Below, one piece after another: positions 1,010 through 17,400 of a stretch of 64,000 bases of DNA; position 1 is the stretch's first letter; each line of letters begins with the position of its first letter. A program made the translations under genes and the position numbers. Below the pieces are notes generated by a model. It made no database searches. It saw only the letters and a list, made by a program, of their open reading frames with translations, and was not told where the DNA came from. The stretch comes from a virus (lineage: Duplodnaviria > Caudoviricetes): the IMG/VR virus record IMGVR_UViG_3300020576_002081, positions 20,861 through 84,860 of that record; one strand, written 5' to 3'.

Positions 1010-3859
1010 AATTACAATTTTTAACAAATATGCAAAATACAAATCTGAATTAAAACGACGTGAAACTTGGAATGAAATATGTGATAGATATGAAAACATG
1101 TTGGTTCAAAGATATTCTCATTTAGAGGCTGAAATAAAAAACAACATGCTTTATATTAGAAATAAACAAATTTTACCAAGTATGAGAGCTATGCAATTTG
1201 CTGGTGCTCCAATATTTAAAAATGAAAGTAGGATATACAATTGTGCGTATTTTCCTATAGATGATTATAGAGCCTTTAGTGAAGGTATATTTTTGTTGCT
1301 TGGTGGAACAGGAGTTGGTTATTCTATTCAAAAACAACATGTAGCAAAACTACCAACAATAAATAAACCTAATAAATCTAAAAAGTATATGATTACTGAC
1401 AGTTTAGAAGGATAAAAACGCCTGTCCTTATAAAAGCCATTTAATTGCTGGAAACTCCTAAAGACTATAAAACTACAACAAAATATGAAAATATATTTGT
1501 GAATGTTAAAAATTTTTAGTATATTAATAGTATGAAAGAAGATACTATATATGGACAATCAGCAGCTAAGCTCCTTCTAAATGGAGAAAGTTCAACGACT
1601 ATCCCTTCGGGGAGTACTCCTTTAAAAAAGGAGGAAAAGGTGGCATTATTTAATTTTTATGTTTTAATAGATCCAAGAGATAATAAACCTAAATACATAG
1701 GTAGAACAGTAGATCCTAAATCAAGATTAAGAAATCATTTTTATGAAGCTAAAAAGAATAATAAAACTAAAAAAGAAAGATGGTTAAATTTACTTAATAA
1801 ATTAGGTAAAATACCAAAAATGAGAATTCTACATTCAAGAATTTGTTCAATAACAAAAGCAATTGAATTAGAAAAAAGATTAGTTTTATGGTTTAGTAAA
1901 TATTATGATTTAAAAAATCAACCTGATAATTATTTAGGTGCTGTTTTAAATGGAAAAACTGTTCACCAATATAATTTAAAAGGTAAATATTTAGCTAGTT
2001 ATGCTAATAGCAACCAAGCTTATTTAATTACAGGGATAAAAGATTGTAATATAGGAAGAGCTTGTAAAAATTTAGGAAAATACACTTGCAAAAGTGCTGG
2101 TGGATATTTATGGTCATATGAATTATATGATTCATATCCTTATAAATATAATGATAATGTTAAAGATTTTACAGGAAAACCTGTACAAATGTTTTCTAAA
2201 AATTTTGAATTCATAAAAGAATTTAAAACTGCTAGATTAGCATCTGTTGAAACAGGAATTTCTTGGAAATTAATATCTTCTTGTTGTATAAAAAAACATA
2301 TTCCTCGTAAAAGTAATTTTATTTGGAGATTTAAATAATATGATATAGTCTGACTATATTAGAAATAATATAGATTTTGCATCGGGGCTGATGCTGTAAA
2401 AGCTTTAGTTAAATCTTATTTAACAGATAGTCAATATAAACCAAGATTTGATTATGGTGATATAAGACCTAAAGGAACTAGATTAAAAACTGCTGGTGGA
2501 AAAGCTCCAGGACCAGAGCCTTTAAAAATAGCATTAACTCACATTGAAGCTATATTTGAAAGGAAGAATAATGGAGATAAATTAACACCATTAGATTGCC
2601 ACGATATTATGTGCCATTTAGCAGATGCTGTATTATCAGGTGGAATTAGACGTTCAGCAATGATAGCTTTATTTTCACATGACGACCATGAAATGATGGA
2701 ATGTAAGTTTGGTAATTGGTGGGAACATTCACCTATGAGAGGAAGGGCTAATAATTCGTGTGTATTAGATAGGAATGAAATAACTGAAGATCAATTTAAA
2801 GAAATTTGGTCTAAAGTTGAAATGTCTGGTTCAGGTGAACCTGGAGTTTACTGGACAAATAATAAATATTGGGGTACAAATCCGTGTTGTGAAATAGCAC
2901 TTAGACCTTACCAATTCTGCAATCTTTGCGAGGTAAATGTAAGTGATATTCAATCCCAATCAGATTTAAATAAAAGAGTTGAAATAGCCTCTTTCTTTGG
3001 TACTTTACAAGCAGGCTTTACAGATTTCCATTATTTAAGAAGTATATGGAAAAAAACAACTGAAGAAGATGCCTTAATTGGTGTTGGAATGACTGGTATA
3101 GCTAGCGGTAAAGTGTTAGGTTTAAATTTAACAGAAGCTGCTGGTGTAGTAAAGTACGAAAATCAAAGAATAGCTAATATTATTGGTATTAATGTAGCTG
3201 CTAGAACAACAACTATTAAACCTTCGGGTACAACAAGTTGTGTTTTAGGAACAAGTAGTGGTATACACGCTTGGCACAATGATTATTATTTAAGACGTAT
3301 TAGGGTTATGAAAAATGATCCTTTATATGCTTATATGTATATGTATCATGATAAAATGATTGAAGATGATAAACTTAAATCACATGATACAGCAATAATC
3401 ACAATACCACAAGAAGCACCAGAAGGTTCAATATTAAGAACTGAAAGTGCTATGGATTTATTAGAAAGAATTAATAAATTCAATTTAGAATGGGTTAAAG
3501 CAGGTCATAATAAAGGTGATAATACAAACAATGTAAGTGCTACTGTTAGTATTGATAAAAGTAGAATATATGTAGATCCACCACTGTCTAAAATGGACTA
3601 TGAAAATAGATCTGATGAATGGCAAATGGTAGGTAGGTGGATGTGGAATAACAGAAACTATTACAATGGTATTAGTGTACTACCATATGACAATGGTAGT
3701 TACATACAAGCACCTTTTGAAAATTGCACGAAAGAACAATTCTTAGAATTGAGTAAAAATTTAAACGAAATTGATTTAACCAAAGTTATTGAAGATGATG
3801 ATAATGTAAACTTTACAGAGAATCTAGCTTGTGGGCCTGATGGATGTGAGGTTAAATAA
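981..3859 (+). CDS. nrdJ: Class II (adenosylcobalamin-dependent, monomeric RTPR-type) ribonucleotide reductase; spliced, exons 981-1413 and 2385-3859 (635 aa)
   Basis: Exon 1 has LPSMRAMQFAG, RIYNCA and LLGGTGVGYS. Joining T1413 to G2385 restores ...DSLEG-W-ADAVKAL... in frame. Exon 2 has GGKAPGP, SGGIRRSA, NPCCEI, TIKPSGT and a C-terminal CGPDGC redox pair. Confidence 0.93.
1414..2384 (+). mobile_element. Group I intron (IA2-like) in nrdJ, with homing endonuclease in loop L8
   Basis: Exon ends in U and intron ends in G. IGS GCCTGTCCTT pairs with the 5' exon AAGGAT (P1, U-G) and the 3' exon GGGC (P10). Core elements: AATTGCTGGAAA, AATCAGCAG, AAGTTCAACGACTA, ATGATATAGTC. P8 is ATTATTTAA/TTAAATAAT, flanking the ORF. 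Confidence 0.93.
1640..2338 (+). CDS. Intron-encoded GIY-YIG homing endonuclease with two C-terminal NUMOD1-like repeats
   Basis: FYVLIDPRDNKPKYIGRT...R..H (GIY-YIG variant). Repeats VHQYNLKGKYLASY..S..A and VQMFSKNFEFIKEFKT...A. Likely GTG start at 1640 after AAGGAGG; the ORF-track start at 1532 lies inside the intron core. Confidence 0.85.
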   Translation: MALFNFYVLIDPRDNKPKYIGRTVDPKSRLRNHFYEAKKNNKTKKERWLNLLNKLGKIPKMRILHSRICSITKAIELEKRLVLWFSKYYDLKNQPDNYLGAVLNGKTVHQYNLKGKYLASYANSNQAYLITGIKDCNIGRACKNLGKYTCKSAGGYLWSYELYDSYPYKYNDNVKDFTGKPVQMFSKNFEFIKEFKTARLASVETGISWKLISSCCIKKHIPRKSNFIWRFK

Positions 3860-8381: not shown

Positions 8382-9374
8382 ATGAAAACATTAAATTTAA
8401 TTGACTTAGAGAAGTCTGATATTAAATATAAAATAAGTAAATTTCCTGATGGTCAACAAAATATTGTTATTGATAATTCTCCTGATATAGATGGAGATAA
8501 ATTACCAGGTTATTATTATTTAGCTGGTCGAAGTAGAATATATACTAAAGAAAGTATAACAATTAAATCACGTCTAAACAACTGGTTAGACTTAGAGCTA
8601 ATCAGTTGTTCTATAGCTTGTTTAAAAGAATTAGGAGTAAAAGAAATACACTTGTACGTACCTTATATAGTAGGTGCTAGAAGTGATAGAAAGTTTACTG
8701 AAGGTTCTAACAACTATTTAAGAGATGTTATATGTCCTATATTAACTAGTATGCAATTTGAAACAATAACTTGCTTAGATGCTCATTCTTATTGTTTAGA
8801 AATGGGATTAAAAAATCTTAAAGTTATTAGTAATGAAAACTTAGTTAAGTGGGCCACATTAGATTTATATGATGCAATTGAAGAAAAAGGTCCTAACTCA
8901 AACTACCCTTGTATATTAGTATCACCAGATGCTGGAGCTTCACATAAAATCTATAAATTAGCTAAACAAATTGGTTATAAAGGAGATATTATTACTTGTT
9001 CTAAAGAAAGAGATACTGATGGTAAATTAACTAAAACGGTTGTACCTATTACTGATTCAATAATTAAATCTAAAAAAGATTATATTATTATTGATGATAT
9101 TTGTGATGGTGGTGCTACATTTATTAATATTGCAAAAGAAATTAAATCTACTTTTAGTATTTATAGTAAAACAGAAAAACCTAAAATCTACCTCATAGTA
9201 ACTCATGGTATATTCTCTAAAGGTTTTGATGAATTATCTAAATACTTTGATGGTATTTATTGTACTAATAGTTATAAGGATGTTCCTAAATATTATACAT
9301 CAATAATAAGTGGGGAACAATATCCAGTAAATAAAATAACTAATGAATTAATTAATCAATTAAACGTATTTTAA
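8382..9374 (+). CDS. prs: Ribose-phosphate pyrophosphokinase-like protein; candidate Adps (ADP-ribose pyrophosphate synthetase) of NARP1
   Basis: KFPDGQ, PYIVGARSDRKF, LDAHS, VSPDAGA, KERD, and the PRTase motif IIIDDICDGGATF, plus VTHGIFSKG. Confidence 0.85.
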   Translation: MKTLNLIDLEKSDIKYKISKFPDGQQNIVIDNSPDIDGDKLPGYYYLAGRSRIYTKESITIKSRLNNWLDLELISCSIACLKELGVKEIHLYVPYIVGARSDRKFTEGSNNYLRDVICPILTSMQFETITCLDAHSYCLEMGLKNLKVISNENLVKWATLDLYDAIEEKGPNSNYPCILVSPDAGASHKIYKLAKQIGYKGDIITCSKERDTDGKLTKTVVPITDSIIKSKKDYIIIDDICDGGATFINIAKEIKSTFSIYSKTEKPKIYLIVTHGIFSKGFDELSKYFDGIYCTNSYKDVPKYYTSIISGEQYPVNKITNELINQLNVF

Positions 9375-9634: not shown

Positions 9635-10090
9635 ATGAGATTAGAAGATAATTTAAATAAATATGAACAACGATTACTTCAGGAATGGAGAATGTATGGT
9701 AAAATAATCATCGGTGTAGATTTTGATGACACAATATGTGCATGGAAATTTAAAAGTGATGATGATTTAATAATGATTAGTAAAACAATAGACTTGCTTA
9801 AAATGGCTAAATCTGTTGGTGCTTATATAGTTATATTTACAGCTTCTCCTCCTGAAAGAAACCCTGAAATACAAGAGTATTGTGAAAAAGTTAAATTACC
9901 AATTGATACAATCAATATCACTCCTTTTGAAATACCAGAAGGATATGGTAAACATGGTAAAATATATGCAAATATTTTCATTGATGATAGAGCTGGTTTA
10001 CTAGAAACTATCAATACTTTAGAAAAAATAACTCGAATCATGATGGGAGATAATATGAAAAAATTAACATTAGGAGAAGAAGTACAATGA
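9635..10090 (+). CDS. HAD-superfamily hydrolase
   Basis: IIIGVDFDDTI (motif I), IFTAS, KIYANIFIDDRAG (motif IV). Start taken at 9635. Confidence 0.8.
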   Translation: MRLEDNLNKYEQRLLQEWRMYGKIIIGVDFDDTICAWKFKSDDDLIMISKTIDLLKMAKSVGAYIVIFTASPPERNPEIQEYCEKVKLPIDTINITPFEIPEGYGKHGKIYANIFIDDRAGLLETINTLEKITRIMMGDNMKKLTLGEEVQ

Positions 10091-10572
10091 AAATATATGT
10101 AAAAACACAAGAAAAATTTAAAAATCATAAAGAATTAATAAAATTTTTATTTAAAATTTATACAACGAATGGTTTTCCTGAAACATATTCTAATAAAGAA
10201 TGTACTGTTTTACAGTGTGAAGCTAATAAAATGAGAAGTTTTGATAATATATACTATATTGTTAAAACATATTTCCCAATAATTAGTCATAAAACTGTTT
10301 TTAAAACATTATTACTTTGTAGAAGAAAATCTGGAAACTATTACAATTATCCTAATTTAGGATGTTGTGGTACAATGCGTAGAATTAGATTTACATTTGC
10401 TTATGATACTGAAGCTAATTTTCCAAAAACTTTACATCATTCAATTTTAAATATACAATCATATGAGTCTTTATGGTCTTGGGGAGATTTAGCATCATCA
10501 ATAGGTATTACAACTATAGAAAGTATTAATGAATTTTTTAAAAATAATAAAAATAATTTAATTATAATTTAA
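10087..10572 (+). CDS. hypothetical protein (paralogue of the C-terminal domain of 7011-7895)
   Basis: 161 aa; ATGA overlap with the upstream gene. Confidence 0.65.
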   Translation: MKIYVKTQEKFKNHKELIKFLFKIYTTNGFPETYSNKECTVLQCEANKMRSFDNIYYIVKTYFPIISHKTVFKTLLLCRRKSGNYYNYPNLGCCGTMRRIRFTFAYDTEANFPKTLHHSILNIQSYESLWSWGDLASSIGITTIESINEFFKNNKNNLIII

Positions 10573-10573
10573 T

Positions 10574-11452
10574 ATGTCATTTAAAATAAATAGTCTATAC
10601 TTAACTGATGGTTACAAAGTAGGACATCAAAAAATGTTAGCTCCAGGTACTACTAAATTATATGGTACTTGGATTCCACGTTCAACTAAACATGCACCAA
10701 AAGGTATTACTAAAATAGTATCATTTGGACAGCAATTAGTTTGGAAATGGTTACATGATGAATTTGAGGAGAATTTCTTCCTTACTGAATTAAGAGGAGT
10801 AGGTGGATATGCTGCTTTAAAACACAAAGAAAGCTTAAAACAAAAAGCACTTCAATTTATCAAAGATATGTCTTTATACTTAGGTATGGAGTATGATGGT
10901 AAGCATTTTGAAGAATTGTGGGATTTAGGTTACTTACCTATTAAAGTAAAAGCTTTACCAGAGGGTATTGAAACTAACCCGAATATTCCTCATATGACCT
11001 TTGTAAATACAGTTGATGGATTTGCATGGTTAACTTTATATCTTGAAACAATAGTATCATCATTAGCTTGGAAACCGAGTACAGCAGCTACTATTGCTAA
11101 GTTATATCGTAGACAATGTGAAGAATGGGTTATGAAAACCGATCCTAAACAAGCTTATTTAATTGATTGGATGTGTCATGATTTCTCTGCTAGAGGATTA
11201 GACCCAATGAGTCAATATTTAATTGGTTTAGGTCATACTACTTCATTTAAAGGTAGTGATACTTTACCTGTAATACCTGCAAGTAGATATTTCTATGGAG
11301 TTAAAGAAGATGAAATGCCTATATTTTCAGTAAATGCAAGTGAGCATAGTTGCTCATGCACTAAAATATTTGCAGAAGCAGAAAAGTATTCACAAGTAGA
11401 GGAAATGTTTGACGAAGTGACTAATTCTTGGAAACCAGTAAAATATTTTTAA
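10574..11452 (+). CDS. nadV: Nicotinamide phosphoribosyltransferase-like protein (candidate Namat), N-terminal fragment
   Basis: LTDGYKVGH, WIPRS, FGQQ, LPIKVKALPEG, WLT.YLET, HDFSARG, GH.TSF.GSDT, SVNASEHS. Stops 34 codons after EHS. Confidence 0.88.
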   Translation: MSFKINSLYLTDGYKVGHQKMLAPGTTKLYGTWIPRSTKHAPKGITKIVSFGQQLVWKWLHDEFEENFFLTELRGVGGYAALKHKESLKQKALQFIKDMSLYLGMEYDGKHFEELWDLGYLPIKVKALPEGIETNPNIPHMTFVNTVDGFAWLTLYLETIVSSLAWKPSTAATIAKLYRRQCEEWVMKTDPKQAYLIDWMCHDFSARGLDPMSQYLIGLGHTTSFKGSDTLPVIPASRYFYGVKEDEMPIFSVNASEHSCSCTKIFAEAEKYSQVEEMFDEVTNSWKPVKYF

Positions 11453-11454
11453 TT

Positions 11455-11778
11455 ATGAGTACAACATTCGGAATAAAAGTAAATCCTGAATTGACAGGTT
11501 ATCCTGAAAAAACTTGGAGTAAAAATTTCAGATATTGGACAGAAGAAGAAAACCAATATGATAATGGCGTTTATAAAATAGCATTTAGATTTTTTGGAGG
11601 CAAAAAATATGGGGCTATTATGTATTTTACTTGTCCTATAGCCCATTTATTACCTCTTAACACCCCTGTAATTGCTTTAGATAATACTGCTGGGGATATT
11701 GAAACAATAGGAGATATAATTGAACACATTAAAAATCAAAAAGAGTATCCTGAACAGTTATTAGCAAATAGTGAATAA
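11455..11778 (+). CDS. hypothetical phage protein inserted between the two Nampt-like fragments
   Basis: ATG 2 nt after the upstream stop (MSTTFGIK...). C-terminal motif V.A.DNTA..I.TIGDI. Confidence 0.7.
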   Translation: MSTTFGIKVNPELTGYPEKTWSKNFRYWTEEENQYDNGVYKIAFRFFGGKKYGAIMYFTCPIAHLLPLNTPVIALDNTAGDIETIGDIIEHIKNQKEYPEQLLANSE

Positions 11779-11820
11779 TTTTGTAAATACCAAATTATTT
11801 AACAATTATTTTAATAAAAC

Positions 11821-12189
11821 ATGGAAATAAAAATTGAAGATTATCTTTCGGAAGAAGAAATCAAAGAAATAGTTAAAGAAGAAATTAAAAAACACATTAG
11901 AAATTGTGTTGGAGAAGTTTCTGTATCTCAAGATAAGGCAAGAGTTATGTTATCAGTAATGGCGAAACAAATAGCTAGAGATGGTATTCAAGGACTTATA
12001 CCTAATTTTAAAGAATCTTTAAATGAACATATTAAAGAAGAAATTAAAAACTTGAAATTACATGATTTCTTTACTCATAATATGGGATGGAGAAGTGATG
12101 GTAATAAATTAATTAATTCTATTTTGTCTGATAATAAAGCGTTAATTGATGCTAAAATTAAAGAAATATTTAAAACATTAGAAAAATGA
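11821..12189 (+). CDS. hypothetical protein inserted between the two Nampt-like fragments
   Basis: 122 aa, MEIKIEDYLSEEEIKEI...; ATGA overlap with the next gene. Confidence 0.7.
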   Translation: MEIKIEDYLSEEEIKEIVKEEIKKHIRNCVGEVSVSQDKARVMLSVMAKQIARDGIQGLIPNFKESLNEHIKEEIKNLKLHDFFTHNMGWRSDGNKLINSILSDNKALIDAKIKEIFKTLEK

Positions 12190-13692
12190 AAACAAGAATT
12201 AGACAATTAACAGAACAAGAAAAGCGTTCAAGAGGAGAACAACAAATGATTGCAGATTGGCTTAAAATCTTTCCTAAAGGTATTTTAAGCATAGTTTCAG
12301 ATACATTTGATTTATGGAAACTAATTACTGAATATCTACCTGCTAATAAAAAAGCTATAATGGATAGAGGTCACATTGAAGTAATTAAATTACCATTATT
12401 TAATGGAAAACCTACATATTGTGGTAAAGATTGGGCTATTGGTGATACATTAATTAAAATAGGAACAGCTCATCAATTAGGATATTGGAGCGAAAATGAT
12501 GACCCTGACGATAATGTTTATCAAAACCAAAGAACTAAAGAAACTATAAACTTAACTTTATTAAATGATAAAGGTTCTGAGTATTTTAAATATATTCCTG
12601 GTAAATTAGTAATTAGACCTGATAGTGGTGACCCTGTTGATATTATTTGTGGATTAAATATTCCTGAATTTAAAGATGAATCTGAAATTAGAGATTGTTT
12701 TTATAATATAGATGAAAATAAAGAATTTATTTTTAAATATAAAGAACAATTTTATATAGTTAATTCTAATTATACTATTGAAGAACATATCAGAGAGTAT
12801 GGACAAGAACATTGGAATAAATGGAAAACTTTGTTTGATGCTGTTGAAAGATATGGTTATGTAGAAATTTATAAACCTAAATTTTCTATATCTGAACAAA
12901 AAGGTGTAATTGAACTACTTTGGGACATCTTTGGTGGTACTGTAAATGAACAAGGTTATAAAGTATTAGATCCTCATATTGGAGCAATATATGGTGATAG
13001 TATTACACCTGAACGTCAAAAACAAATCTATGAAAGATTAGCAGCTAAAGGTTTTGCAGCTACTAATATTGTATTAGGTGTAGGTAGTTTTACTTATCAA
13101 TATAATACTAGAGATACATTAGGGTTGAGTTTTCACAACTGCGAGCCCCCTTATACAGTAATGTATATTGAATAATTGGAAGAATTGCTGGGAAGTGTTT
13201 AAAATCATTATCAGCAGCCGAGCTTTAGGGAAGACTAAAGAAGGTTCAGAGACTAGGGACACTACGGTGAGCCCACAGCATCCAACTACTTGTAAATCAA
13301 GTAGATGATATAGTCCAATAAAATTTAACATATGGAATAAACTAAGTAACCTATAAAGTGTCGCAGCTAAAGGTGCTTGGTTTGAAGTTGAAACTTGTAG
13401 TAGAGAAGATTGTAATGGTAGTTCTTGTAAAGCTGAAAGAGGTTCTATTTGTAAACATCATTCTAAAAAATCATACAATATCTACAAAGACCCAGTAACA
13501 GATGATGGTACTAAGAAGTCTTTGAAAGGATTGTTAGCTGTATTTAAAGATGATAAACATGATTACTTTGTTCAAACTGAATGTGCTGGAGAATTAGAAA
13601 ATTCAGGAGAATTACAACTAATCTATGAAGACGGTAAGTTTTATAATCAAACAACATTAGAAGAAATAAGAAACAAATTAAATAAAATTTAA
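12186..13692 (+). CDS. nadV: Nicotinamide phosphoribosyltransferase-like protein (candidate Namat), C-terminal fragment; spliced, exons 12186-13125 and 13361-13692 (423 aa)
   Basis: GEQQMIADWL, SIVSDTFD, KLVIRPDSGDP, GAIYGDSIT, LGVGSFTYQYNTRDTLG. Splicing gives LG-F-AAKGAW, then YKDPVTDDGTKKSLKG and LEEIR. Confidence 0.88.
13126..13360 (+). mobile_element. ORF-less group I intron (235 nt, IA2-like) in the Nampt-like C-terminal fragment
   Basis: U13125 at the 5' splice site and G13360 as the terminal G. IGS CTGCGA-G-CCC pairs with the 3' exon TCGCAG (P10) and the 5' exon GGGT (P1). Core: AATTGCTGGGAA, ATCAGCAG, AGGTTCAGAGACTA, GATGATATAGTC. Hairpins CTTTAG/CTAAAG and CTACTTG/CAAGTAG. Confidence 0.92.
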
Positions 13693-13702
13693 AATAAATA
13701 AT

Positions 13703-14194
13703 ATGTCTGAAAATAGTAAAATCATGGCTGATAAAGTAAAAGTTAATGCTGTAAAAGTTAATCCTTTAAAAAAGAAGGAAATATTAAAATATAAAGATCT
13801 TGATTATAATGTTGAATATTCAACTTTAGAAGAATTAGTAAAGCCTTTAATTTCACGGATTATAGAAGATGAAGATCAATGTAGGAACAACCTTTTGTTT
13901 TCTAAGAAAAAATTTTCTTTTAGAATTACACAATTAGAACATTGTTGTGGAATTAGTGAATTGGGTGGTTTTATTGTTGATAGAACTATAAATATAGAAG
14001 ATTTAGCTAACTTCTTTGATTTATTAGTTGCTGGTATTACAAATCATACTTTAATTATTAATACTAATGGTATTGATGATTCTAAAACTTTAGAAACAGC
14101 ATTAGTTAAATGTAAAAATTGGACTGCTGTTAAAAAATTTAAAAACCATAATTCAAGAAACATGATAACAATCTGGATTAGTAATAATCCTTAA
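13703..14194 (+). CDS. hypothetical protein
   Basis: 163-aa ORF, co-oriented. Confidence 0.65.
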   Translation: MSENSKIMADKVKVNAVKVNPLKKKEILKYKDLDYNVEYSTLEELVKPLISRIIEDEDQCRNNLLFSKKKFSFRITQLEHCCGISELGGFIVDRTINIEDLANFFDLLVAGITNHTLIINTNGIDDSKTLETALVKCKNWTAVKKFKNHNSRNMITIWISNNP

Positions 14195-14218
14195 TAACAA
14201 ATAAAAAACAAACAACAA

Positions 14219-14413
14219 ATGAAAACAAAAAACAACAAATCAGCAAACAAATCAAAAAGTCTTAACAGTCACGTTAAAGTAGCTAAAGGTGTATATCGTA
14301 CACTAAGTGGAAATTATGCAGTAAGACCAACAGTAAATGGAGTACGTTTACATGTAACTTTTACTAACATGAAACAAGCTAAAGCATACTATAAAACAGT
14401 TGTTAATTCTTAA
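14219..14413 (+). CDS. small basic protein, possibly AP2/integrase-arm-like DNA-binding fold
   Basis: KGVYRTLSGNYAVRPTVNGVRLHVTF...AKAY strand-strand-strand-helix pattern; A-rich leader. Confidence 0.55.
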   Translation: MKTKNNKSANKSKSLNSHVKVAKGVYRTLSGNYAVRPTVNGVRLHVTFTNMKQAKAYYKTVVNS

Positions 14414-14418
14414 TTAAT

Positions 14419-14457
14419 AAAACACCCCTACTACATTTTGTAACAGGGGTGTTTTTT
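14419..14457. terminator. Bidirectional intrinsic terminator at the junction of the convergent blocks
   Basis: Inverted repeat AAAACACCCCT...AGGGGTGTTTT with A/T tracts on both sides, located between convergent stop codons. Confidence 0.85.
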
Positions 14458-14481
14458 ATTAGTACCGTAAATATTTAATTG

Positions 14482-17400
14482 TTATTTTTGATAAGGGTCT
14501 TTATTCCAAAGTCTAGCAAAATCTGCTATTGGTTTAATTACAGGAGTTACATTAATTAAACTGGCTAATTCTTTATTTTCACCTTTAAATCTACCTCTTT
14601 TAAATTTATCACCAGTAATTACTGATGGAGTATATTCTATAACTTTAATTAAATCTTGAGCTGTCTTAAGCATTGGAACACTAAGTTTTGCAGGATCTGT
14701 TAACGCTTTAGGGTTATAAAAATACATTAAATCACCACTAATTTGATTTAATTGACTCATTAAAAACTTATATGTTGGATCTTTACGTTTTTTATCATCA
14801 TCAAATCCTATACCTGCTAATACCGTACCTAATAGTAAGGTTAATTCAATCATATTCTTACGCATATTATAAACATCAGTTTCATTAAAAGAATACTTTT
14901 CAATATTCTCAACATCATTCTGAAATTTAGCTATCATATAATTAAATCCTTTAATATAAGTACGATATCTACCTTCAATCTCAACATCTAATCTTTCATC
15001 AAATCTTTTACCACCAAATCTAGATTCAATTGCTGCAGGTATCCATTTTTTAAATTGAAAAGCGGCTCTAAATAAACTATATTGAGTTAAAGCAGCAGCA
15101 TCTTTTTGAGAATATCTACCATGAATTAATTGATTAATTCTATGTATTTTATTAGTAGTTTTAAATATAAAATTATCATCTAACTCATAACCCATTAATT
15201 CAGAATTCCATTCACCACTTTCATTGAAAGCTTCCCACATGCTTATGGTATTACCTTCTTTAGTAGTAACTTTATTATGTAATAACAAAGCAATCATAGT
15301 ACTAGTTTGCATTTGTTTTTCACCCATTCTTTGAGGTAAATACATTAAAGATTTAATCTTATCTTTATATTCATTAGAACCTACATTAATCTTTTCAAGA
15401 TTTTCATAATCATCTAATTCCATTAAAGGATTAAATTTAGCTGCTAATTTATTAAGTTTAGAATCATTCACTAAATTCTCTTTAGAAAATATTTTAATAG
15501 CTTCTAAATATTCTTTAGTAGTAAAATGTCTACCTCCAACAGCTTCAATTAAGTTACCTATATTACCTATAATAAAGTTTACAGACGCATTAAAAGGATT
15601 CAAACCAATTCTTAATAATGATGTATACTTAAGCATAAAATCAATATGAGGAGCATATTTCTCTTCACGTTTCATCTCACCTAATACTTGCATTTTAATA
15701 AATGAATCAATCATTTCATTAAGTTTAGTATCTTCACCATATACTGATTTATTCTTATTAGTATTCTTAATAAATTCTTGTTGTTTAACTAACTCTTGAA
15801 ACAATCTTGCTTTAGGTAAAACATCAGTCATTTCTTCATATGAATTAGCAAAATAAGCATATTTAAGTAAAACACTACCTAAATCTTTAGATTTAATATC
15901 TTTACTTAATTTACCTAAGTATTTAACAGGTACACTATCCTTTTCAAGATTTTCATCAAATATTCTATCATTATCAGAATAATCATTAATTTCTAACATA
16001 TGATTTGCACCATCTTTTAATTTAGATAACATAGTCTTATCAGACTTCATTATATCCATCAAAGTTCTTTCAACTATATTAGGTATAAAATTAGAATTTT
16101 GTTTATATTGTTCAGGTAATTTATCATTAACCTCGGCAATTATTCCTTTAAAGAAATTATAAAATTCTTTTAATTCTTTAGTATTTTGAATAGTTTCATA
16201 ATCCTTATTATTATACTTATTATCTCTAGGTATAAATTCTTTAGTAGCAGAATTATACGTAGCTAATTTACTTCTTATTAAGAAACCATTAGGTTCTTTA
16301 AAAGAATCAGATATTTTTTTATAGAATTCGGTTGTATAAGGTTTAGTTAAAACTAAAGTACCTTTATGTTCTTGTAAGAAAATTTTATAAATATCTGTAC
16401 CAGATAAACCTCTAGATTTTTGATAATCAGTTAACTTATTAACAGCATTATTAATTCTTTCAAAAGACTTCTTATTTTCAACTTCAATCTTATTCTGAGC
16501 CTTTTTAATTAATAACCCTATAGTTTTACCTAAATAGTTTTTAACATCAGCTAATGTACCAAAATTAGCTTCTGCAGCTGAAATATCAGTATCTAATTGA
16601 TTAAATATACTTTCATCAAATTCTTTACCAGTTAATCCTTGCATTTCATCTAAAACAAACACTTTAGCGAATTGTAAAGTATCATTTAATAATATACCTA
16701 CTCTATCTTTAACACCAATCATATTTTCAAACATGTGTAAAACTTTAACAGTTCTTTCAATCTTATCTACATTAGGTTTATTACCAGATTCTACAACTTG
16801 TTTAAGTTTATTAACATACTCTTCAATCTCATCTAAAGTTTCATTAGCAAGATTTAAAAGTACTTGTTTATTACCATTTTCACTAATTTCTTTTAAACTA
16901 GCTTCAATTTTAAGTATTTTTTCATTGGTTTTTAAGAATTCATCACTAGAAGGTTCTAATTTAGACAAATCTGATTTTAATTTACCTAATAATCCTTTAT
17001 AATATACATATTGAGGTCTAATATCTTTAGCTATGATATTCTTATTATTAACACTAAACATCTTAATAAAAAGGTCTGTACTCTCAACTTCTTTAGTTGA
17101 AAGTATCATTTTAGCTAATTCTTTAGATAAATTATCAAGTTCAGACTGTATATTATAGTTTGGTTTAAATAACCTTACAAAAGCATCTAACATTCTTTTT
17201 ATAGTTTCCCATAAAGCAAAACCAGGTTCATTTAACAATTCTTCAGGTGTATTAGCTTCAGCTATAACTTTAGCTACTAATTTACCTAAATATTCGTGTT
17301 TTAAGAGAGTTTCATCATTATTATATGTATCTATATAGGTTTGACCTAAAAAGCCTCTATAATCGACTTTATTCATTAAATTAAAGGCTCTTTTAACTAA

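Follow-up and report, generated by a model that had tools for sequence, protein, structure and literature searches.

A split Namat gene in phages and the putative mobile cassette, linked to a homing endonuclease, that interrupts it

Introduction

The nrdA-a/mobE/nrdA-b arrangement of Aeromonas phage Aeh1 is reportedly the case for which Friedrich et al. spoke of 'genes in pieces' in 2007. In this phage a free-standing HNH-type endonuclease cassette splits an enzyme gene beside active-site residues, and the halves, which are translated separately, bear short, oppositely charged tails on their new C- and N-termini. The tails arose with the insertion of mobE, are missing from uninterrupted homologues and are essential for activity; the authors proposed that they arrived with the endonuclease and predicted similar tails on other fragmented genes (Crona et al., 2011, PMC3045599). 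They also noted tail-like charged extensions for the topoisomerase genes 39 and 60 of phage T4 (PMC3045599), which are split by mobA, likewise a free-standing endonuclease gene interrupting an enzyme gene; gene 60, in addition, has a translational bypass of 50 nucleotides (nt). The order half gene, endonuclease gene, half gene is further known from the so-called fractured genes, in which a free-standing endonuclease gene separates the halves of a split intein; an electrostatic attraction between their added peptides has been proposed (Dassa et al., 2009, PMC2677866). Here we examine a comparable locus in 64,000 nt of viral DNA (Caudoviricetes; IMG/VR record IMGVR_UViG_3300020576_002081, 84.9 kb long and estimated to be ca. 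93% complete), a stretch which as a whole is called the window below. In the window the gene of Namat, a Nampt-like enzyme, is broken into two pieces, with two open reading frames (ORFs), orfA and orfB, lying at the break.

A literature search yielded no description of a split Namat or Nampt. The split Namat gene appears to follow the pattern of Aeh1 nrdA in the respects given above, the nuclease being present here in relatives of the window and separate translation of the halves being predicted; what it adds is comparative evidence for the portability of the tails. It differs in that Namat is an anti-defence NAD+ ligase and in its reversed polarity, with an acidic tail and a basic leader. Furthermore, the Aeh1 tails were shown to be essential by biochemistry, whereas the Namat case is known from sequences and a model; the comparative data for Namat, on the other hand, indicate tails that move with the cassette and reveal a second insertion site, exchangeable cargo and in-frame scars. 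Unlike T4 gene 60, Namat has no 50-nt gap or bypass signal, and a bypass of the gene 60 type was rejected because of the 0.86-kb gap and the leader's own ATG. Compared with the fractured genes, the Namat peptides are far too short for an intein and lack catalytic residues, and covalent ligation is not expected.

The reading that we favour, with a probability of roughly 80%, is that a homing-linked cassette occupies a loop of Namat and that the two resulting chains reassemble non-covalently into the Nampt fold. An endonuclease-associated mobile cassette would thus enter the loop after the catalytic-histidine strand of a phage Namat gene, supplying the upstream half with a 26-codon acidic tail and a stop and the downstream half with a start codon and a 16-codon basic leader. 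Between these would lie a cargo slot, filled by a reverse-strand HNH gene in relatives and by orfA and orfB in the window. The enzyme would be translated as two chains, of which the second additionally requires splicing of a group I intron, and the normal Nampt fold would be restored when they reassemble. A first-pass annotation, made from the letters of the window, had already proposed a two-chain enzyme, with terminal peptides that might dock its halves; this part of it is supported here by all computational tests, whereas the mobility of the cassette, its ownership of tail and leader, the exchangeability of the ORFs and the precedent of Aeh1 NrdA had not been seen.

Results and Discussion

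The break in the Namat gene

A tblastn comparison with two uninterrupted enzymes, from Leptolyngbya phage Lbo-JY46 and Tenacibaculum phage PTm1, placed the break in the Nampt-like gene between TKIF (11371) and GEQQ (12234), and the only residues of the uninterrupted homologues that are unaccounted for at the break are TV. The N-fragment is an ORF of 292 amino acids (aa) on the forward strand (10574-11452), as are all coding features of the window described below. Its core (10574..11371, aa 1-266) contains HDFSARG and the catalytic ASEHS, is 82% identical to residues 1-276 of the Lbo-JY46 enzyme, matches phrog_448 (E=4e-64) and can be aligned to residues 9-251 of the solved structure 9W5X. It ends ...SVNASEHSCSCTKIF at 11371, after which an acidic tail of 26 aa, AEAEKYSQVEEMFDEVTNSWKPVKYF, and a stop follow (11372..11452). 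This tail and stop form the beginning of a gap of 862 nt (11372-12233), which continues with orfA (11455..11778, 107 aa), a conserved spacer (11779..11820), orfB (11821..12189, 122 aa, helical) and finally an ATG with the basic, 16-aa leader MKTRIRQLTEQEKRSR (12186..12233). The spacer falls within a block of 92% identity with contig L004 that begins at 11768. The stop of orfB overlaps the start of the C-fragment as ATGA. The reading frame of the C-fragment (12186-13175, 329 aa) opens with the leader and proceeds with GEQQMIADWL...SIVSDTFD; the middle coding piece of Namat (12234..13125), delimited by tblastn, contains SIVSDTFD, VIRPDSGDP, AIYGDSI and GSFTYQYNTRD and matches the Pfam family NAPRTase (E=1e-14), while the last exon (13361..13692, 110 codons) lies in another frame and is 59% identical to residues 441-545 of the Lbo-JY46 enzyme. 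Twelve related viral contigs extend to the break site, and 11 of them are uninterrupted there, reading ...HSVSTTKIFTVGEQQ... or bearing a longer loop.

The first-pass annotation had described a split Nampt/Namat-like gene with two intact, tightly stop/start-coupled ORFs between its halves and with the 26-aa tail and 16-aa leader as extra termini. The ORFs lie exactly where it had placed them, tblastn confirmed the break, the coupling is evident from the ATGA overlap and neither peptide is present in the uninterrupted homologues. It had also raised the possibility of an assembly chimera. Contigs of three studies, however, span 10733-11880, 11291-12215 and 11270-12230 with 0-4 differences and so cross the junctions, and the same split, with tail and leader of the window type, is found in nine independent assemblies (L004, L019, L048, L054, L055, L056, L058, L063, and L065). 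The split is, therefore, not an assembly artefact. A run labelled as RNA-Seq contained no join across this first break, but the run behaves like DNA.

Tail and leader as parts of a mobile cassette

Homologues of both halves were drawn from a large protein collection. Among the 120 best of each half, 28 N-fragment clusters end with the same tail (consensus AEAEKYSQVEEQFNEATQQWEAVRYF), which is 26 aa long in all of them and has a net charge of -2 to -4 and an isoelectric point (pI) of 4.4, and 32 C-fragment clusters open with a leader of the MK[TK]R[IT]R type (consensus MKTRIRQLTEQEKRS[LR]), with a net charge of +2 to +5 and a pI of 10.9. The positions of stop and start at the break are invariant across the clusters.

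Both peptides are part of the cassette, not of the enzyme, and travel with it, as is clearest in contig L057, which has the same pair at a second site and a scar at the first. At the usual site the Namat of L057 is uninterrupted and reads KIFANAAKYTQVEEQFNEIEKRSLGEQ, an in-frame deletion scar in which the initial half of the tail runs directly into the last residues of the leader. At the second site, which is free of cargo, …EAKGFA is followed by CTKVEEEYDEETQTWKIIRYY and a stop, and after a spacer of 29 nt MKKTRIRELTNDEKNAIG precedes TKGFASTNIV…. A 10-nt inverted repeat, with one arm in the tail DNA and the other in the leader DNA of the window, was also considered; it is not conserved in L004 and was put down to chance.

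Evidence for mobility comes from contigs L019 and L065, in which the flanking Namat is only 41-46% identical to that of the window, yet the cassette DNA is ca. 90% identical and orfB 92%. In a tree of the N-fragment core, split and uninterrupted alleles are intermingled, and at least five changes are required by the well-supported branches alone, although this is a quick and weakly resolved tree. The pattern of identities and the scatter in the tree fit spread by homing and loss by deletion; they do not fit a single vertical origin. The insert thus has the appearance of a mobile cassette linked to a homing endonuclease, the gene of which is found in relatives and has been replaced in the window.

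The same loop has also been split independently, with unrelated tails, by an I-HmuI-like HNH gene in L046 and by a GIY-YIG-like ORF in L044. Some uninterrupted enzymes (L013, P0048, and P0051) contain a loop insertion of 45 aa with homology to the L044 type of tail and leader, and such loops may, therefore, be old scars. Two further proteins deserve mention in this context. The uninterrupted P0030 (508 aa) reads SEHSCSCTKIFTVGEQQ, a Cys-Ser-Cys variant that is otherwise found beside the cassette, which suggests either that the cassette was lost or that split and unsplit alleles have recombined. In P0056 (374 aa) an N-fragment of type 2 is joined straight to the last Namat segment (…NIFAA followed directly by KGAWFEV…) and the whole middle is gone; this may be either a deletion product or an artefact of assembly or gene calling.

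Tail and leader may even constitute a portable protein clasp of a selfish cassette, which rejoins what the cassette cuts and makes its insertion nearly harmless, a proposal that we advance tentatively and at slightly less than even odds. Were it true, a protein clasp would be a third route beside introns and inteins, used at more than one Namat site. Loss of the cassette would leave in-frame loop insertions, cargo genes could even be fused into the enzyme as new domains, and some of the variable loops of phage Namat proteins would be scars of past cassettes. Across all viral contigs the leader pattern occurs only in front of Namat C-fragments, so that there is no evidence of the clasp splitting other genes.

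Cargo of the cassette and the HNH gene

A search for the same split point with different passenger genes, as suggested by the earlier annotation, revealed that the cargo between tail and leader varies between contigs. L004 and L019 carry a reverse-strand ORF of 216-222 aa together with orfB, L056 and L065 the reverse-strand ORF only, and L055 an internally deleted remnant of it plus orfB. The window has orfA and orfB, L048 has orfA and another ORF, and L054 an ORF of 196 aa. The reverse-strand ORFs of L004, L019, L056, and L065 match phrog_1035 (endonuclease VII; E=1e-17) and share the motif HIDHIIP...N..PLW..DN; that of L019 additionally matches the HNH family phrog_2255 (E=1.1e-7). In these four contigs the HNH gene sits in the slot that is held by orfA in the window. 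Decay is the usual fate of homing endonuclease genes, and the remnant in L055, which comprises residues 1-32 and 192-209 of the HNH gene, fits this. We infer from the comparison of these alleles that the HNH enzyme drives the spread of the cassette by homing.

OrfA and orfB, neither of which has an assigned function, are ordinary small phage genes that serve as exchangeable cargo. Homologues of orfA (48-95% identity) occur at the same place in L048 and free-standing elsewhere. Its AlphaFold2 (AF2) model is confident, with a predicted local distance difference test (pLDDT) score of 81; there was no match in the PDB, and the only proteins of similar fold are uncharacterised ones from Cellulophaga and Flavobacterium phages. 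OrfB is 89-92% identical in L004, L019, L055 and a free-standing copy in L020, has homologues of 55-65% identity beside replication genes in other phages, and evolves with a ratio of non-synonymous to synonymous substitution rates (dN/dS) of 0.06-0.21; it is not part of the cassettes of L048, L054, L056, and L065. Searches with orfB of Pfam, PHROG and the GenBank phages returned no useful match and a protein atlas only unnamed viral clusters, and its AF2 model (pLDDT 60) was too poor for a fold search. No nuclease signature was found in orfA or orfB with Pfam and PHROG.

Are the two halves functional?

The split is real, inherited and spread in many phages, and both halves are intact and under purifying selection. 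A comparison of the window with L004 gave dN/dS values of 0.18 for the N-fragment core, 0.075 for a conserved block of the C-fragment and ca. 0.2 for the 26-codon tail, at a synonymous divergence (dS) of ca. 0.6. Copies of the cassette are ca. 0.3 apart in dS, yet the halves contain no stop or frameshift. Structural modelling points in the same direction. A two-chain prediction with the halves of L004 and their alignments scored 0.87, compared with 0.00 for the best of three controls, on a scale where the mark was reached by 58 out of 80 solved complexes and by 2 out of 110 mismatched pairs. The runs share at least 97% of the contacts (ca. 385), with a pLDDT of at least 85 for the partner, and the predicted interface takes in residues 269-292 of the tail and residues 1-16 of the leader. 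Nine of the 11 most conserved tail positions are predicted contact residues. Since one known fold is here divided between the two chains, this result reflects the likeness to solved Nampt/Namat structures.

The first-pass annotation had preferred a two-chain enzyme to a pseudogene, had proposed to model the complex and had named elevated dN/dS or frameshifts in relatives as contrary evidence. No such signs of decay were seen, tail and halves alike being under purifying selection, and a confident two-chain model was obtained, for the halves of L004. Together with the recurrence of intact halves and the charge complementarity of their new termini, these sequence and model data favour a two-chain enzyme, and we infer that the two chains form an active one. 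The oppositely charged tail and leader would help its assembly, as judged from the model and by analogy with NrdA-a/NrdA-b of Aeh1.

Several observations weigh against this reading. The gene in the window is unusually loaded, with a captured ORF of 77 aa, a long variable loop, a Cys-rich insert and an intron, and this allele could be impaired even if other split alleles work. The purifying selection seen between the window and L004 may partly predate the insertions. In the predicted complex, any contribution of the tails is indistinguishable from the fit that halves of the same fold have in any case, and the tails of Aeh1 are dispensable for the NrdA-a/NrdA-b heterodimer itself (PMC3045599). 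Finally, tblastn detected no remnant of the HNH gene in the window, so that, with no recognisable nuclease in its cassette, the case for homing derives from relatives only.

It could be argued that the halves assemble by themselves and that tail and leader are neutral by-products of read-through into the insert and of an available start codon. Halves of one fold with an interface as large as that predicted here may need no help, the Aeh1 heterodimer forms without its tails, and the peptides of other split types are different and less charged (type 2: tail 0, leader +1). We nevertheless regard neutrality as unlikely, if deserving of serious weight, since the length of the tail is fixed in the 28 clusters, its aromatic and acidic positions are conserved at a dN/dS of ca. 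0.2, the conserved positions lie mostly among the predicted contacts, and the pair is kept both in Namat proteins of 41-46% identity and at a second site. The 3' end of the HNH gene overlaps the tail in antisense and could account for some of this conservation, but the tail is retained even where that gene is missing, as in the window, L048, and L057. The many insertions in the window copy might also be taken to mean that the cassette killed Namat and that the halves are decaying remnants. This seems very improbable, given that every catalytic motif is intact, that intact halves recur in dozens of clusters, that dN/dS is 0.08-0.18 without stops or frameshifts at the divergences given above, and that the overlap of the orfB stop with the ATG of the C-fragment, which suggests coupled translation, is found in the window, L004, L019, and L055.

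Explanations in which a single chain is restored fare still worse. If the 862-nt gap were an ORF-containing group I or II intron, one would expect a P7-type hallmark within 11372-12233, and there is none. Furthermore, its boundaries show the evolution of coding sequence, with stop and ATG fixed, its cargo can include a gene on the reverse strand, an intron core would not fit into the ca. 150 nt of the cargo-free copy in L057, and the in-frame scar still encodes one half each of tail and leader. In favour of an intron, a true group I intron lies 0.9 kb downstream in the same gene, and the nucleotides before the break and before GEQQ are U and G, respectively. Rfam 15 gave nothing for the whole 64-kb window at gathering score and no intron over 10000-14500 at E<=1, but this silence carries no weight at the first break because Rfam also misses the 235-nt downstream intron. 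On balance an intron at the first break is hardly credible. Ligation of the halves by tail and leader acting as a split intein is the least credible account of all. Its attraction lies in the layout, which is that of the fractured genes with an endonuclease gene between two halves (PMC2677866), and in the inteins that are known in this gene family, at IPA/TEHS in Staphylococcus phage O1-102 and at RPD/SGD in L056 and L063. Together, however, the two peptides have 42 aa, which is not enough for a HINT fold, the tail begins with Ala, the leader ends with RSR or RSL followed by Gly instead of His-Asn followed by Cys, Ser or Thr, and no Pfam intein family is matched. The earlier statement that the break bears neither an intron core nor an intein signature is, therefore, upheld.

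To our knowledge, Aeh1 NrdA is the only case in which peptides of a mobile element have been shown by experiment to rescue a gene cut by that element. The Namat locus would provide a second and much better sampled system, with dozens of natural alleles. Among these are alleles with exchangeable cargo, with a decayed nuclease, with a second insertion site and with an in-frame scar, which together make the portability of the tails directly testable. An enzyme of phage counter-defence (NARP1) that apparently tolerates splitting at a defined loop may also be useful for the design of split enzymes. For annotation the locus is of use because half-genes are easily called pseudogenes or missed, and it points to a way in which proteins may gain loops and domains from selfish elements.

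Identity of the enzyme

Namat forms NAD+ from ADPR-PP and nicotinamide. The split gene is best identified, from its sequence and surroundings, as Namat, the Nampt-like ligase of the NAD+ reconstitution pathway NARP1, because of its GSFTYQYNTRD signature, its best match among solved structures and its PRPS-like neighbour. The core motifs of Nampt-like enzymes are complete across the pieces (HDFSARG, ASEHS, SIVSDTFD, VIRPDSGDP, AIYGDSI, and TRDTLG). Namat is set apart from Nampt by the signature GS-X-Φ1-X-Φ2-X-Φ3-TRD with aromatic X, which belongs to the clamp helix (PMC12774641), and GSFTYQYNTRD in the C-fragment conforms to this selectivity clamp. The best solved match of both halves is the Namat of SpbetaL1 (9W5X/9W5W; E=1e-44 and 1e-56), and human NAMPT matches both far more poorly. 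In its catalytic His motif and its clamp signature (GSxΦxΦxΦTRD) the SpbetaL1 enzyme agrees with that of the window (PMC12774641), but it is encoded by one gene without tail, leader, intron or captured ORF, all of which are present in the window. Upstream of the split gene, a PRPS-like gene (8382..9374; Pfam Pribosyltran, E=4.7e-6) is likely to encode the Adps partner of NARP1; its homologue directly adjoins the N-fragment of Namat in L004 and lies close by in L043, L048, L054, and L056.

Other insertions in Namat genes

The downstream intron, which the first-pass annotation had called intact, is an ORF-less group I intron of 235 nt (13126..13360), and its boundaries are consistent with group I rules, the 5' exon ending in U and the intron in G. 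Joining 13125 to 13361 restores ...TRDTLG-F-AAKGAW, and the P7-type hallmark GTTCAGAGACTA is present at 13244. Upstream of it, 77 aa (12369..12599) are inserted in frame between AIMDR and GKLVIRPDSGDP. Over residues 4-76 this insert is 78% identical to a free-standing phage protein of 77 aa, P0254, with P0255 and P0256 as further homologues, and it is a complete small phage gene fused into the enzyme; a search of the protein atlas with it was uninformative. Among the DNA contigs there are alleles without the intron and alleles without the 77-aa insert.

Cultured phages were searched for a split Nampt, and three candidates were rejected: the gene of Aeromonas phage LAh_9 is uninterrupted, that of BSwM-KMM1 has a frameshift only, and that of O1-102 has an intein. 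In the last of these (Staphylococcus phage O1-102; L041, 1200-3638) a Nampt-like ORF of 812 aa contains an intein with an endonuclease domain at ...ASIPA/C...SGN/TEHS, i.e., 12 residues upstream of the break site of Namat. Inteins also occur, at VIRPD/C...GN/SGDP, in C-fragments of L056 (2993-4813) and L063 (ca. 662-2125) that have an MKTRIR leader, which indicates that a single gene can accumulate all three kinds of element, cassette, intein and intron. In L063 an insert of ca. 1.1 kb (2125-3264) is, in addition, found at the same intron site after TRDTLG and may be the same intron with an ORF. In L057 (4402-5915) the KGFA split is followed by a Namat micro-exon of 14 codons and then by a probable group I intron of ca. 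1 kb, the 5' exon again ending in U and the intron in G. Its removal restores LGIG-S-FTYQMNTRD, and it contains a DUF723 ORF and a GIY-YIG-like ORF.

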